Source: an uncultured archaeon (lineage in GTDB: Archaea > Aenigmatarchaeota > Aenigmatarchaeia > QMZP01 > JAFGSV01). Taken from it: a stretch of 49,852 nucleotides of DNA. The notes under the pieces were generated by a model. It did not search any database. It was given only the letters and a program-made list of their open reading frames with translations, and was not told where the DNA came from. The first letter of the stretch is position 1. Each line of letters opens with the position of its first letter. The stretch spans positions 1 to 49,852 of the forward strand of contig CAZXIU010000001.1 of NCBI GenBank assembly GCA_964640865.1, read 5' to 3'. The position numbers and the translations under genes are program-made. Positions 11,390-17,943 of the stretch are shown one piece after another.

Positions 11390-11402
11390 GTTTCCTGTGG
11401 AG
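11390..11402 (-). repeat. mini-ORB (reads CTCCACAGGAAAC on minus strand)
   Basis: Plus strand reads gtttcctgtggag. It is the inverted copy of the 11561/11578 repeats. Confidence 0.6.
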
Positions 11403-11480
11403 TTTATGAAATAAAATTTTATGACTTATTATATTATATATTATAATATAACATAGTTATATATACTTATAATAGCGTTT
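11403..11480. other. AT-rich putative duplex-unwinding element
   Basis: tttatgaaataaaattttatgacttattatattatatattataatataacatagttatatatacttataatagcgttt. It is almost devoid of G/C and is bracketed by oppositely oriented ORBs. Confidence 0.55.
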
Positions 11481-11494
11481 TTGCTTCCAAAAAA

Positions 11495-11515
11495 TCTCCA
11501 TACGAAACACAGGGG
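11495..11515 (+). repeat. ORB with G-string (TCTCCATACGAAACACAGGGG)
   Basis: TCCA-N3-GAAAC core followed by ACAGGGG. It has the same architecture as the two elements at 15089 and 15189 on the other strand. Confidence 0.55.
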
Positions 11516-11560
11516 TGGTGCTGTTCTGCTATTTACTTTTTCATTAAAAACAGAAAAAAG

Positions 11561-11590
11561 TTCCACAGGAAATAATTTTCCACAGGAAAC
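11561..11590 (+). repeat. Two tandem mini-ORBs (TTCCACAGGAAA at 11561 and 11578)
   Basis: Exact 12-mer repeated with a 17-bp period. Confidence 0.65.
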
Positions 11591-11636: not shown

Positions 11637-12860
11637 ATGGCCCAGTCATCCCTTAGCGAAATATTCGAATCTTATACCAATACAGTAGGTCTTTTCAAAG
11701 ACAAGGGAGCGCTTTCAACTGATTTCAGTCCTGCCAATATACCCCACAGGGAAAAGAAGATAGAGGAGCTCGCGTATATGCTGGCTCCTGTTCTCAGGAA
11801 CGAAAAGCCCTCGAATATTTTTATCTACGGAAAGACAGGCACAGGAAAAAGCCTCTGTATAAAGAAGGTGACGGATTCCCTGGAAGAGGCAGCTGAGAAA
11901 AGCGGCCGGAACGTCAAGATAATGTACATAAACTGCAAGATGGGAAAAGTCGTCGACACACAGTACCGGCTCCTTGTAAAGATACTTTCAATGCTTGGCG
12001 AGGACGTGCCTTTCACAGGCCTTCCCACAAACACCCTCCACAAGAAGCTCAATGAGAAGCTTGCTGAACGGGGAGGAAACATAATAATGGTCCTTGATGA
12101 GATAGACGCTCTTCTGGAGAAGATAGGGGATGACATACTCTATAACATAACACGAATAAGCCAGGATGTCCCGAACACACAGATAACCGTTGTCGGCATA
12201 TCCAACAAGCCGACATTCGTGGACAGCCTCGACCCAAGGATAAGGTCATCGCTGTCAGAAGAGGAGATGGTTTTCCCTCCTTACAATGCGAATGAAATAA
12301 AAGACATTCTTCAGGCAAGGGTGGAGACAGCTTTCAATGAGAATGCAGTTGATTATGGCGCCATAACCAAGTGCTCCGCGCTCGCAGCGCAGGAAAACGG
12401 CGACGCAAGAAGGGCGCTTGACCTCCTGAGGGTTGCCGCAGAATTGTGCGAGAGGGAGAAATGCAAAAAGGTCAGCGAGCGGTTCGTCAACAGCGCACAG
12501 GAGAAACTTGACAAGGACAGGCTGATAGAAATAATAAAAGCGCAGCCCAAGCAGTCAAAACTTGTCATAATATCAATGCTTAATCTCTACAAGCAGGAAA
12601 AGAAGGCCGTGCAGACAGGCGATGTGTACAACCTATATGAAAAGCTCGCGCACGCCAACGGGCTTAAGGCGCTTACACAGAGAAGGGTTTCCGACCTGAT
12701 ATCAGAACTTGACATGCTCGGTGTCATAAACGCCTCGGTTGTGTCCAAGGGAAGATACGGAAGGACGCGAAAGATAAACATACAGCTGAACAAGGGTCTT
12801 GTCTCTGTTCTGAAGAATACACTGGCAGGCGAATTTACTGAGGATTTTATTAATTTTTAA
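11637..12860 (+). CDS. cdc6: Orc1/Cdc6 replication initiator
   Basis: AAA+ Walker A GKTGTGKS, Walker B VLDEID and sensor region GDARRALDLLR. The C-terminal winged-helix portion and the 407 aa length are typical. Confidence 0.93.
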   Translation: MAQSSLSEIFESYTNTVGLFKDKGALSTDFSPANIPHREKKIEELAYMLAPVLRNEKPSNIFIYGKTGTGKSLCIKKVTDSLEEAAEKSGRNVKIMYINCKMGKVVDTQYRLLVKILSMLGEDVPFTGLPTNTLHKKLNEKLAERGGNIIMVLDEIDALLEKIGDDILYNITRISQDVPNTQITVVGISNKPTFVDSLDPRIRSSLSEEEMVFPPYNANEIKDILQARVETAFNENAVDYGAITKCSALAAQENGDARRALDLLRVAAELCEREKCKKVSERFVNSAQEKLDKDRLIEIIKAQPKQSKLVIISMLNLYKQEKKAVQTGDVYNLYEKLAHANGLKALTQRRVSDLISELDMLGVINASVVSKGRYGRTRKINIQLNKGLVSVLKNTLAGEFTEDFINF

Positions 12861-12874
12861 CATACTTCTTTTAC

Positions 12875-13810
12875 ATGGAAAAACAGACCATTATCCGCGA
12901 ACTGATGGCAAAAGGCATAATGGTGACACCCGATATACTTGAAATGGCCCTCAGGGACGGCATTGATCAGGTCGTTTCAAGCAGGCATGATGTGGTGATG
13001 TCATCAGTCAGGACAACCGAAAGGACAAGGAATGCAGCAGAACCAATAAAATGCTCTTCACTTCTTTCTGAATCCAAGAAGGAATATACAATTGAAGATG
13101 CTGTCAAAAGCAACTACAGAAGGTATGAGTCGCTGAGACGCATGCTCCTGCGGAAAGCAGACGCGGTTTCCATAAAAAACATAACGAATGCAAAAAGCCG
13201 CATAACAGTCGTGGGGATGGTGAAGGAAAAGAAGGATTTCGGCTTTGTGCTTGAGGACAGCACAGGAGAGGCCACTGTCAAGAGTGATGCCAATGTGGAA
13301 ACAGACGATGTCATAGGTGTTAACGGATGGGTAAGAAACGGTGTTTTCACAGCAGATGACGTTTTTTATCCGGACATTCCGATGGACCGTGTGGTCGGCA
13401 CCATCGAAGGAACGCTTCTTCTGAAGAACACAGGCAGCATCCCTGACGTGAATGCTGATGTTACTGTGACCCCTGATTCTTTCATAACAGGCGGAAAAGA
13501 GGCAATGACATGCACACCCAACACCATCACAGTGGAAAGAGGGGGGAAGAAGTTGATAATAGTTGTGTATAAAACAGACGACCCTGTGAATAAAAATGAT
13601 GCCATCAGGTGGCTGAGAAGGCGCTTTATGCCGAGCAGTGAAAGAATTTTCGACAGCATGTATGTCCTCGACCCGGTGCCTGACATCTTATGGATATCGT
13701 CCAAGAACGATTACTGGTGTGATAATTACAAGGGCACCACAATGGTGTCTTTCGGTTACGGAAGGAGTGCTCTTGTAGATATGAAAACACGTGGTATAAA
13801 ACAACTCTGA
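12875..13810 (+). CDS. DNA polymerase D small-subunit (DP1)/B-subunit-like protein with truncated, apparently inactivated phosphoesterase domain
   Basis: The N-terminal helical module IIRELMAKGIMVTPDILEMAL and the OB-fold block ITVVGMVKEKKDFGFVLEDSTGEATVKS...DDVIGVNGWVRNGVFTADDVFYPDIP are collinear with DP1. Where DP1 has SD(I/V)HVGS this protein has LLLKNTGS. The GDxxD and GNHD regions are absent, and GH(V/T)H is replaced by SSKND in VLDPVPDILWISSKNDYWCDNYKGTTMV. It is 311 aa, against about 480-620 aa for DP1. Confidence 0.6.
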   Translation: MEKQTIIRELMAKGIMVTPDILEMALRDGIDQVVSSRHDVVMSSVRTTERTRNAAEPIKCSSLLSESKKEYTIEDAVKSNYRRYESLRRMLLRKADAVSIKNITNAKSRITVVGMVKEKKDFGFVLEDSTGEATVKSDANVETDDVIGVNGWVRNGVFTADDVFYPDIPMDRVVGTIEGTLLLKNTGSIPDVNADVTVTPDSFITGGKEAMTCTPNTITVERGGKKLIIVVYKTDDPVNKNDAIRWLRRRFMPSSERIFDSMYVLDPVPDILWISSKNDYWCDNYKGTTMVSFGYGRSALVDMKTRGIKQL

Positions 13811-15036
13811 TGTTTGTGGAAATATTACTGTCTGCTTTATTCGGGTTTTCGTTAGGTCTTTTTGCAGGGCTCATACCCGGAATACATCCAAATACCATTA
13901 TGGTTATCATTGGCTCGTCGGCCATCTTATCCGGCACAGCCAGCACAGAATGCATCCTTGCGTTTGTTGCATCCCTTTCAGTGACCAACAGCATAGTCAA
14001 CTTCATACCATCAGTTCTTACAGGCGCGCCTGAATCTGATACATGTCTCTCTGTATTGCCTGCCCACAGGTTCCTTATGTCAGGACGCGGCTATGAGGCG
14101 CTGTACTTGACAGTTGCCGGCGGGGTTTTCGTCACGCTTCTCACAGTTGTTTCCCTTCCATTCCTCCTCTGGGCGGTTCCGGGAATTTACAGCCTGATAT
14201 CAGGCTATATGCACTGGCTGCTCATTGCGGTTCTTTTGGTTCTCCTTATTAATACGCGCTCCAGGCGCGCGCTTTCCCTTTTTGTTTTCATTATCACAGG
14301 GATTTCCGGGTTGCTGCTGCTTTCAACATTTCACCAGGAAACCGTGCTGTTTCCATCGCTTACAGGGTTGTTTGCAGTGCCTGTCCTTGCTCTGAGCGCA
14401 GGAACATTCAGCTTTCCTAAGCAGAAGATACGGACACCAAAGAACATAAGCATGAAAGGAGGCTTCTCAGGATGGCTGTCAGGCATATTCGTTGGCATGC
14501 TTCCCGGCATAGGCTCAGCCCAGGCAGCTGTACTCTCCAATAGTATAGTAAAGGGAAATGAACGGGATTTCATGATGTCCATTGGAGGCATAAACACGTC
14601 GAATGTCATGTTTTCATTCGTAATGCTGTTCACACTCTCCAAGACAAGAACAGGGGCATCCGCATTCATATCAGGCATTTCAGGGGCCATAGACATTTAC
14701 GGACTCTCTCTTCTCATGGCAGTGTCCGTGCTGTCGTGCATGCTTGCAGCTGTTTTTACTCTCTACGCAGGAAGGCTGTTCACGAGAAACATACACAGGG
14801 TTAACTACAGGAAGATGAACTTCACAATAGTTGCATTCCTTGTAGCCATTACATTCATCATAACAGGAATATATGGCCTCTTGATAATGGTCTTATGTTC
14901 ACTTATCGGCGTGTGCAGTTCATATATGGGTGTAAAGCGCATGTATATGATGGGATTTCTCATGCTGCCGACAATAATATATTTCTCCGGTTTAGGGGAT
15001 GCGGCCAGTTTATTCAGTCTCTTGATTCCGGTTTGA
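13810..15036 (+). CDS. Polytopic membrane protein, TctA/DUF112-like
   Basis: About 10-11 TM helices with repeated G(L/M)(I/L)PGI(H/G) motifs (GLFAGLIPGIHPNT, GIFVGMLPGIGSAQA). The start overlaps the upstream stop (TGATG). Confidence 0.6.
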   Translation: MFVEILLSALFGFSLGLFAGLIPGIHPNTIMVIIGSSAILSGTASTECILAFVASLSVTNSIVNFIPSVLTGAPESDTCLSVLPAHRFLMSGRGYEALYLTVAGGVFVTLLTVVSLPFLLWAVPGIYSLISGYMHWLLIAVLLVLLINTRSRRALSLFVFIITGISGLLLLSTFHQETVLFPSLTGLFAVPVLALSAGTFSFPKQKIRTPKNISMKGGFSGWLSGIFVGMLPGIGSAQAAVLSNSIVKGNERDFMMSIGGINTSNVMFSFVMLFTLSKTRTGASAFISGISGAIDIYGLSLLMAVSVLSCMLAAVFTLYAGRLFTRNIHRVNYRKMNFTIVAFLVAITFIITGIYGLLIMVLCSLIGVCSSYMGVKRMYMMGFLMLPTIIYFSGLGDAASLFSLLIPV

Positions 15037-15088: not shown

Positions 15089-15110
15089 CCCCCCTGTTTC
15101 CACTGGAAAC
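15089..15110 (-). repeat. ORB with G-string (minus strand GTTTCCAGTGGAAACAGGGGGG)
   Basis: Plus strand reads cccccctgtttccactggaaac. It is a near-textbook archaeal ORB core plus a G-run. Confidence 0.6.
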
Positions 15111-15291: not shown

Positions 15292-17943
15292 TTAACTGAC
15301 TGCCACTGAAATGGGTCCCTCTGGTGTGGAAAATTTTAAAGCTCCCCCGCATGAACACTTTCCTGAGAGAGGCGGCCTTGCTGACTTCATTCCACAGGAC
15401 ATGCATATAAAGCCGCTTACATCAGACAGTTTGCCCTTTATCACGGGTTCTTCACATGCTTTCTTGCTGTTGTTTATGACTTCAAAAAGACCCATCTGCT
15501 TTCCCGCGCCGAGAAGCTCGTCCCTGCTTATGCCTATTGCATTGAAAATCCTCTCAAGAGGCGGAAGCAGCTGGTTGTCTATGTAATACTTCGAGTCAAT
15601 TGAAAGTCCGTTTTCCCTGACAAAATTCGGGTCCTCTGCCCTTTTGGAAAGCATCTCCATTCCCTTGACTATCACGTATCCTATCCTGTCGCCGACACCG
15701 GGAAGGTCCATATCATTTCTTTTTTCCATTTTTTTCACAACCTCGACGTGCGGCTGGACACCGGCATATTTTTCAGGTCTTCTGGTGAGGGTTTTCGTTA
15801 TGACAAGCTTCTCAATGTCAACGTCCCCGTCAAGAAGCCCCTTCACCACGTCCTTGAAATATGAAACAGCTGCCTTGGTGTCGTTTTTCTTGAGTATGAT
15901 TTCTATTATCTCTTTCATTGTTTCTCCTGTAAGCTCGCACCAGTCACGCCGCACGGTCTCTATACCCTTCATCACAATGTCGTCCTTCCATTCACCTGTT
16001 TTGTCCCTGAACATGGACCACCCCATGTAACGCTTCTTGGTCAGGGGAAGAAAACGCTTGAACAGCTTTTCGAATTCCAGTTCCATTATACCGGGAAGCC
16101 GTTCAGTCATCTTCTTCCCGATGTCTTTTCCGATTTTCTCCGCCTCTTCCATGCTTTCCGTAGGAACCTTTATCATTACGGAATCAGTATCACCATAGAC
16201 TACCTCATAACCGAAATCCTCTTCCATGGCCTTGACTGTACTGTGTATGGTTTCACGCCCGAAAGCTGTGACAGAACTGGCTATAGCGACATTGTATATC
16301 TTTGCCCTCGTGTAGCCGAAATATCCGTAGAAAGCATTAGCCAGCGTCTTTATCGCGAACTGCTTCAGGTCGAGCATTTTTCTGGTCTTCTCATCAGCGT
16401 TCCTCGCCATCTTCTTGACCTTGCTTCTCTCTTCCATAAGGTTCTCGAGTATACTCGGTATTACGCCGCGTCTGACACTGGGCTTGACGAACATTGAGCC
16501 GTTTGGTGTGGTTATGTGTTCCACATCTTCATTCCCAATAAGAAGCGTGGTCGGGCATATATTATATGTTCGTATAAGTGAAGGATACATGGACTTGAAG
16601 TCAAGCACAAGCACCATTGAATGGAGACCTTTCTTTGGCTCTATGACGAAGCCGCCTTTAAGGTCCTTGCTTTCATCCTCACCGTTACCATTGGTTCTCT
16701 CTGCTATCTGCTCATTGTTCTTGGATGGTATGATAAAGCCTTCCTTGTTGAACACCTTCAGGTAGTAATTTTCTATTCTCTGGCTTTCCCCTCCTTCCAG
16801 TACATCATTCAGGAGCGAACCTGATATTTTTGAAAGCGCGATGTACTTGTCCATGAGGTCAAGCTTCGTGATAAGCTTGAGTGCAAGTATGCTGTCCTGA
16901 AGGCAGTAATCAGCGAGTATCTGGTACTTTTCCTGGGACCCCCTCCAGAACTTCCCTATCTCTGACTTCTTGACGTCTTTCTTCTCCTCTCCTATGAGGG
17001 CTTTCGAAACAAAGTCCAGTCCGTATCTTTTCAGGTTCCAGCCCTTCTTTATCATTGAGAATGAATCCGCAATTATGCGGCCGGTTATTGTTATTCTGTG
17101 CCTTCCACCAAAGACATCATCCCTCACTGACTTGGTTTTGCATCTTCCGAATACGGGCCGTATATTATTCTTTTCCATCCTCTTCAGTATGTAGGGAAGA
17201 TCGTATCCGACAATGTTGAATCCTGTCAGGACGTCAGCGTCATATTCATTGATGATTTCCATGAAACGAATGAGCATGTCCTTTTCACCTGAGAGCGCTT
17301 CTATGCCATCTCCCGGCCTTGTGGAAAGTATAATTGATTTTGTTCTCCTGTAATCATCTGAGAATACAAGCGATATCATCGCAACAGGGTCTGTTTCGGA
17401 ATCAGGCATAGAGCCTTCATTCTTTCCCACTGTCTCTATGTCGAAAGCGAGATACCTGAGCGGAGCATCCTCCTCGGTGTCAATTATTTCGAATTCCTTT
17501 ATCTGGACAAGCCTCTGCGCTGATACGCTTGTTGTGCTTATGCCATTGCTTTCTTTCGTGCTTATCCAGCGCATTCCGCCTATGTCCGAGTCATTCATCC
17601 ACCTGTACTTGAAAAGTATATCAGCCTCGTATGTGCTTATGCCCTTCTTCTTCAGTGCTTCACGCACCTCCACTGTCTTGGCCGGATTCTTCAGTGTTAT
17701 CTTCCAGACATCGCGCGGCTCCTGATATCCCATGGGAAGGGTTCTTTTCACTTTTTCAACATTGTGTATGCTCGGAAGTCCTTCAAGGCTTTCATTTATG
17801 TCATCGCTCGCTGCATAGAAATACGGAAGGAATCCCTCATAGAAACCGCAGACACTTTTTCCTTCCCTGTCCTTTCCGAATATACGCAGAACCGGTCGCT
17901 CATTAACCATTACATAGTCGACATCCATTATCTGAAATTCCAT
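15292..17943 (-). CDS. polB: Family B DNA polymerase with C-terminal Cys4 zinc-ribbon extension
   Basis: Exo I FDIET, pol motif A DFKSMYPS, motif C YGDTDS and KKRY-type LTKKRYMG. About 60 aa follow the usual thumb end (...ERIFNAIGISRDELLGAGKQMGLFEV) and contain CMSC-x12-CSC (residues 847-865, nt 15349..15405). Confidence 0.92.
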   Translation of the reverse strand: MEFQIMDVDYVMVNERPVLRIFGKDREGKSVCGFYEGFLPYFYAASDDINESLEGLPSIHNVEKVKRTLPMGYQEPRDVWKITLKNPAKTVEVREALKKKGISTYEADILFKYRWMNDSDIGGMRWISTKESNGISTTSVSAQRLVQIKEFEIIDTEEDAPLRYLAFDIETVGKNEGSMPDSETDPVAMISLVFSDDYRRTKSIILSTRPGDGIEALSGEKDMLIRFMEIINEYDADVLTGFNIVGYDLPYILKRMEKNNIRPVFGRCKTKSVRDDVFGGRHRITITGRIIADSFSMIKKGWNLKRYGLDFVSKALIGEEKKDVKKSEIGKFWRGSQEKYQILADYCLQDSILALKLITKLDLMDKYIALSKISGSLLNDVLEGGESQRIENYYLKVFNKEGFIIPSKNNEQIAERTNGNGEDESKDLKGGFVIEPKKGLHSMVLVLDFKSMYPSLIRTYNICPTTLLIGNEDVEHITTPNGSMFVKPSVRRGVIPSILENLMEERSKVKKMARNADEKTRKMLDLKQFAIKTLANAFYGYFGYTRAKIYNVAIASSVTAFGRETIHSTVKAMEEDFGYEVVYGDTDSVMIKVPTESMEEAEKIGKDIGKKMTERLPGIMELEFEKLFKRFLPLTKKRYMGWSMFRDKTGEWKDDIVMKGIETVRRDWCELTGETMKEIIEIILKKNDTKAAVSYFKDVVKGLLDGDVDIEKLVITKTLTRRPEKYAGVQPHVEVVKKMEKRNDMDLPGVGDRIGYVIVKGMEMLSKRAEDPNFVRENGLSIDSKYYIDNQLLPPLERIFNAIGISRDELLGAGKQMGLFEVINNSKKACEEPVIKGKLSDVSGFICMSCGMKSARPPLSGKCSCGGALKFSTPEGPISVAVS

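Follow-up and report, generated by a model that had tools for sequence, protein, structure and literature searches.

The window (the whole 49,852-nucleotide stretch of DNA that was analyzed, from an uncultured member of the Aenigmatarchaeota, a DPANN phylum) carries on its reverse strand, at positions 15292..17943, a polB gene for a family-B DNA polymerase of 883 amino acids with a C-terminal DP2-type zinc module, ending in a TAA stop codon at 15292-15294. The Pfam domains DNA_pol_B_exo1 (PF03104, residues 103-311, E = 2e-34, 120 bits) and DNA_pol_B (PF00136, residues 379-803, E = 8e-113, 378 bits) both surpass their gathering cut-offs of 23 bits, and intact exonuclease (Exo I FDIET, Exo II NIVGYD, Exo III YCLQD) and polymerase (Pol A DFKSMYPS, Pol B KTLANAFYG, Pol C YGDTDS) motifs can be read in the sequence. 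Since all of these motifs are readable, the enzyme core looks active and proofreading-competent. The core is followed by a PIP-box-like motif, QMGLFEVI (residues 815-822; 15478..15501, reverse strand), which conforms to a QxxLxx(aliphatic)2 pattern kept across PolB homologs and which may mediate PCNA binding. Next come a linker (residues 823-843; 15415..15477, reverse strand) that is poorly conserved and varies in length among homologs, and a zinc-ribbon module (residues 844-883; 15295..15414, reverse strand) homologous to zinc finger III (Zn-III) of DP2, the large subunit of PolD. The layout of the protein is hence PolB core, PIP-like motif, variable linker of about 20 aa, and Zn-III module. 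A second family-B polymerase, 27% identical to the tailed PolB, is encoded in the same genome (contig C12:3671-6064); its alignment is confined to residues 1-814, and it lacks a zinc tail.

Beyond the 3' end of polB, three genes are found on the forward strand. An orc1/cdc6 gene (11637..12860; Pfam Cdc6_C, E = 1e-27, Cdc6_lid, E = 2e-22, and AAA_22) lies directly upstream of a gene for a 311-aa protein (12875..13810) that resembles DP1, the small subunit of PolD. This DP1-like protein is an inactivated B-subunit and the presumed docking partner of the PolB tail, and its open reading frame (ORF) is about 1.5 kb from polB. Between the DP1-like gene and the 3' end of polB stands a gene for a TctA-family membrane protein (13810..15036; PF01970, E = 4e-39), which is probably unrelated to the DP1-like/polB pair. 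The stop codon of the DP1-like gene and the ATG of tctA overlap by a single base, the last of the stop codon (window positions 13807-13813, ORF coordinates), which suggests translational coupling.

Upstream of orc1/cdc6, a region of ORB-like dyads (11391-11589) contains two exact copies of TTCCACWGGAAA (11561 and 11578) plus an inverted copy with one mismatch (11391), and a palindromic copy occupies 15097-15109, between the facing 3' ends of tctA and polB. The window holds eight matches to TTCCACWGGAAA, against 0.58 expected from shuffles, and the dyads likely mark an origin of replication that flanks the genes for the DP1-like protein and PolB. The one-mismatch ORB-like word TTCCACAGGACA, at 15390-15401, falls within the tail-coding sequence, over the codons M-S-C-G-M around C850, and is probably a coincidence.

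Conservation of the PolB tail

The tail corresponds to the last 62 residues of PolB (residues 822-883, INNSKK...VAVS; 15295..15480). This stretch, which comes after the polymerase domain and the PIP-like motif, agrees with the initial annotation of a C-terminal extension of about 60 aa carrying C847, C850, C863, and C865. Beyond residue 800, the only cysteines of the protein are these four and C830, which lies in the linker and is not conserved among homologs. The four motif cysteines (codons 15403-05, 15394-96, 15355-57, and 15349-51, respectively) are arranged as GFIC847xxC850-x12-C863xC865GG..FS..G. No Pfam domain was detected in the last 62 residues, the sole match of the isolated tail being to VWA7_N, with an E value of 0.16.

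A homolog search of a collection of 5.8 billion proteins recovered more than 120 PolBs with 50-74% identity, all of about 880 aa and, for those with a named source, all from the Aenigmatarchaeota. The tail is present in every PolB homolog found except one truncated sequence; the CxxC-x12-CxC arrangement, with identical spacing, is seen in 118 of 120 homologs, and two display CxxC..CxxC. In an alignment of 38 tail sequences, residues G12, C15, C18, G29, C31, C33, and G34 (alignment numbering) are invariant in all 38, and the consensus reads GF-x-C-x-K-C-x3-Y-x-R-P-P-L-x-G-x-C-E-C-G-G-x-L-L-F-S-S-x2-G-P-A. A six-frame search of 121 genomes sampled across the phylum located the tail module in 118 genomes, representing 78 of the 79 genera. 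In nearly every case the module closes an open frame of 870-930 aa, and the three genomes lacking a tail match include two in which the PolB match stops early (at residue 743 in G056 and at residue 585 in G046). At five loci (G119:C16, G106:C2, G064:C4, G022:C67, and G116:C96) the tail is found at the end of frames of 1300-1730 aa, which might represent PolBs that harbor an intein or are lengthened in some other way.

The tail is more than a chance extension, and the position of its stop codon is conserved. That this stop might be an artefact had been raised in the initial annotation, and a wrongly called stop, a frameshift or a chimera formed during assembly could in principle generate such a tail in a metagenome-assembled genome fragmented into 79 contigs. 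Nothing else was found to favor such an origin, to which we assign a negligible probability: a tail of this kind, with its stop at the same position, is observed in more than 100 independent assemblies, and the nearest homologous locus (L001) is 97% identical to PolB over residues 1-883. Conservation of the tail and of its stop position across the phylum therefore led to the rejection of an assembly artefact.

Relationship of the tail to DP2 zinc finger III

When compared against the PDB, the tail profile matches the DP2 of T. kodakarensis (6knb_B, residues 1129-1165; E = 6.5e-9) and, at the corresponding site, that of P. abyssi (6hms_B and 6t8h_B; E = 1.5e-7). The next-best match has an E value of 0.026, leaving the Zn-III of DP2 as the sole significant match, and the NCBIfam DP2 equivalog NF003103 also matches PolB weakly at residues 845-878 (E = 0.004). 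An AF2 model derived from the tail alignment (pLDDT 94.2) depicts a small, zinc-ribbon-like module composed of beta structure and coil and, together with the invariance of the four cysteines, it bears out the initial reading of a Cys4 zinc ribbon. That reading had also attributed such a module to DP2 and to the eukaryotic B-family polymerases, and structural comparison concurs. With the 51-residue tail model as query, P. abyssi DP2 chains take the first three places among the PDB matches in Foldseek, with an rmsd of 1.6 Å and 40% identity across 35 columns, and chains containing the CTD of Pol epsilon or Pol alpha are found lower and weakly (E about 1); the best E value is itself weak (0.04), since the domain is tiny, and the structural search served only to corroborate what the sequence comparison had given. 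The PolB tail is a Cys4 zinc ribbon of about 40 residues that descends from the DP2 CTD zinc finger III, and its four cysteines would be expected to bind zinc.

The PolB tail and the DP2 Zn-III (6knb_B, 6hms_B, and 6t8h_B) have in common the pattern F-x-C-x-x-C-N-x-x-Y-R-R-P-P-L-x-G-x-C-x(1-2)-C-G-G-x-(hydrophobic beta strand)-S-x-G, although the second knuckle is CxC in the PolB tail and CxxC in DP2. The two also differ in what surrounds the hairpin. In DP2, a helical segment comes after Zn-III and the chain closes with a PIP box. This stretch measures about 60 aa in the DP2 of the aenigmatarchaeal family f8, and the 6knb_B chain (T. kodakarensis) extends about 160 residues beyond its match, whereas PolB stops 18 residues past C865. 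The host protein is likewise different, being a double-psi beta-barrel polymerase in the case of DP2 and PolB in the case of the tail. The full DP2 CTD, defined by CxxC..CxxC plus the helical segment and terminal PIP box, is thus not what the tail contains, and only the Zn-III hairpin is common to both.

A dead DP1 homolog and its linkage to polB

The DP1-like protein has no Pfam match, and PF04042, the Pfam family of the B-subunit PDE, finds neither the protein nor a gene in the genome, a silence compatible with a phosphoesterase (PDE) domain that has been inactivated and shrunk to about 140 aa. Taken alone, the PF04042 result would indicate that DP1 is absent, which is wrong, as profile searches against the PDB and fold searches reveal a DP1 homolog. 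A profile based on the eight sequences recovered by a word-based homolog search matches DP1 (6knb_A, E = 3.5e-10) across the OB fold and the final strands of the PDE, and the NCBIfam DP1 model NF003118 matches residues 2-172 with an E value of 2.5e-17, below its curated cutoff. The AF2 model of the protein is of moderate confidence (pLDDT 67) because only eight homologs were found; used as a Foldseek query, it retrieves DP1 or eukaryotic B-subunits (Pol epsilon, delta, alpha, and zeta) in all of the top 48 matches. Profile and fold searches hence agree on an OB fold combined with a calcineurin-like PDE fold, and the alignment of the DP1-like protein with its homologs contains invariant residues. 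Aligned with the canonical DP1 of family f8 (about 490 aa, with SDLHIGS, GDLVDG, PGNHD, YHG, and SGHLH), the DP1-like protein has lost each of the five PDE motifs, by replacement or by deletion, and its sole histidine is H38. The 311-aa ORF is a DP1 homolog that is catalytically dead.

A DP1 or DP1-like homolog is present in all 121 sampled genomes of the phylum. The DP2 N-domain (PF03833) was not found in the source genome (0.9 Mb), for which the absence rests partly on its relatives given a completeness of 86%, nor in six congeners, and DP2 occurs in only six of the 121 sampled genomes, with 115 lacking it. The tail and the DP1-like gene share a contig in 104 of 112 genomes, and the distance between them does not exceed 6.5 kb (median 3.1 kb). 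In 76 of these 104 linked genomes the DP1-like gene immediately precedes polB on the same strand, and in 25, including the source genome, it is placed beyond the 3' end of polB on the opposite strand. Synteny of the DP1-like gene with polB is also observed in the homologous loci L001, L002, L003, L005, and L006.

Family f8 (five genomes) presents the complementary pattern. Its members keep a DP2 that carries Zn-III and ends in a PIP box, together with a full-size DP1 with all five PDE motifs, and their PolB, of about 770 aa and 31-35% identical to the tailed PolB, ends at a PIP box without a tail. In one of them (G098; loci L016, L017, and L018), DP2 ends in KQFSLSSF about 60 aa past Zn-III, and PolB ends in GKQKNLGDFR, which aligns with the QMGLFEVI motif that is internal in the tailed PolB. 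The initial remark that ordinary archaeal PolBs lack the extension is hence upheld within the same phylum, where tail-less PolBs end exactly at the PIP box. Outside f8, DP2 is gone, DP1 is short (frames of about 290-400 aa), and PolB is tailed. The canonical PolD of f8 looks like the ancestral state within the Aenigmatarchaeota.

This distribution bears on whether the tail could be a free-standing zinc ribbon that acts on DNA, in nucleic-acid binding or processivity, next to a DP1-like protein that is an unrelated relic. Small zinc ribbons commonly bind nucleic acids, and the tail has conserved basic residues (consensus YxRPPL) that would suit such a role. The homology of the tail, however, is specific to the Zn-III of DP2 and not to DNA-binding ribbons, and a relic would be expected to decay, whereas the DP1-like gene is kept in every genome sampled, constrained, and linked to polB, all of which renders a DNA-acting ribbon very unlikely.

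B-subunit docking and comparison with known systems

The CTDs of DP2 and of the eukaryotic PolB catalytic subunits are described as binding DP1 or the B-subunit, and the zinc motif of DP2 as corresponding to eukaryotic CysB, by Kazlauskas, Krupovic, Guglielmini, Forterre, and Venclovas (2020, NAR 48:10142; PMC7544198). According to a 2025 paper, Y2H assays with Aenigmatarchaeota proteins detect an interaction of DP1 with PolB-DP2CTD, and not with canonical PolBs (PMC12680538). In view of this binding, the tail is therefore best read as a dock for the DP1-like B-subunit. We consider it highly probable that the tail is a Zn-III-derived ribbon fused to a complete PolB and docking an inactive DP1-like B-subunit, and by analogy the PolB and the 311-aa protein of the source genome would interact. 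The lineage has lost DP2 and kept a shrunken, catalytically dead DP1, to which, under this model, the zinc module would tether PolB. The outcome would be a replicase of two subunits that resembles eukaryotic Pol delta or Pol alpha in its construction, with a catalytic PolB, a CTD zinc motif, and an inactive B-subunit, in which proofreading would be supplied by PolB itself.

Several features count against docking. The tail is devoid of the helical part of the CTD that makes much of the B-subunit interface in DP2 and in eukaryotes, its second knuckle is CxC and not CxxC, and the pLDDT of the DP1-like model is 67. In addition, the 2025 paper terms the Aenigmatarchaeota tail a 'degenerate DP2CTD' and predicts a different structure for it (PMC12680538). 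Instead of DP1, or besides it, the zinc module might recruit another replisome partner, for which the candidate is the primase large subunit PriL, known to bind the DP2 CTD in other archaea; the tail is itself DP2-CTD-derived. Such recruitment appears improbable, given that canonical primase did not interact with the Baldrarchaeial PolB3 CTD and that PolB-CTD did interact with DP1 in the Aenigmatarchaeota, as the 2025 paper reports (PMC12680538), and that the tight linkage of polB with the DP1-like gene favors DP1 and the helical part of the CTD is missing in the tail.

Docking of the DP1-like B-subunit, which remains our preferred reading, can be extended into a scenario that we put forward tentatively and regard as somewhat doubtful, in which the DP1-like and zinc-tailed polB genes constitute a single two-gene module. 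PolD would have been displaced when the ancestor of most Aenigmatarchaeota acquired this module, on one occasion and perhaps through a mobile element, and f8 would represent the ancestral PolD state. If this were true, a bare Zn-III hairpin of about 40 residues, lacking the helical CTD, would suffice as the minimal element for B-subunit docking, and the system would constitute a living intermediate on the route to the eukaryotic polymerase architecture.

The zinc-tailed PolB with a dead DP1 is already known in the Aenigmatarchaeota from the 2020 and 2025 papers. Kazlauskas et al. (2020; PMC7544198) describe, in PolB group B6, a 'B6-aenigma1' polymerase of Aenigmarchaeota with a DP2-type CTD, in organisms where DP2 is lost and DP1 inactive. 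On sequence grounds, the tailed PolB matches this published B6-aenigma1 polymerase: both feature a single C-terminal Cys4 motif that is closest to the DP2 CTD zinc motif, an Aenigmatarchaeota host, no DP2 found and an inactivated DP1, and no essential difference sets the tailed PolB apart from being one more member. Assignment to B6-aenigma2, which has two zinc motifs, was rejected, as only one motif is present; this second group has been reassigned to Baldrarchaeia contamination in the 2025 paper (PMC12680538). The reservation voiced at the outset, that the tail might prove widespread and already annotated in ordinary PolB families, thus holds in part, insofar as the tail is phylum-wide (118 of 121 genomes) and is described as B6-aenigma1 in both papers (PMC7544198; PMC12680538). 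The source contig adds one more example, together with supporting distribution and linkage statistics, and the phylum-wide linkage of polB with the DP1-like gene and the complementary f8 pattern may be additions to what the available text of these two papers contains.

A parallel outside the phylum is the PolB3-DP2CTD of the Baldrarchaeia (Nat Ecol Evol 2025; PMC12680538), which likewise combines a PolB with a DP2-derived CTD, the loss of DP2 and the retention of DP1, with an interaction with DP1 detected by Y2H. The CTD of the Baldrarchaeia is, however, full-length and eukaryote-like, whereas that of the Aenigmatarchaeota is described there as shorter. In the eukaryotic Pol alpha, delta, epsilon, and zeta, a family-B core is also followed by a Cys4 metal module, which binds an inactive, DP1-type B-subunit, but these CTDs carry CysA and CysB at opposite ends of a helical bundle. 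The definition of the eukaryotic PolB CTD, with two Cys4 motifs on a helical bundle, thus does not describe the PolB tail, which has one motif and no bundle. A PolB with a DP2-derived zinc module that pairs with a dead DP1 is the archaeal counterpart of the eukaryotic architecture of catalytic subunit and B-subunit, and as such it bears on the origin of the eukaryotic replicative polymerases, a connection recognized and partly tested in the literature (2020, 2025).
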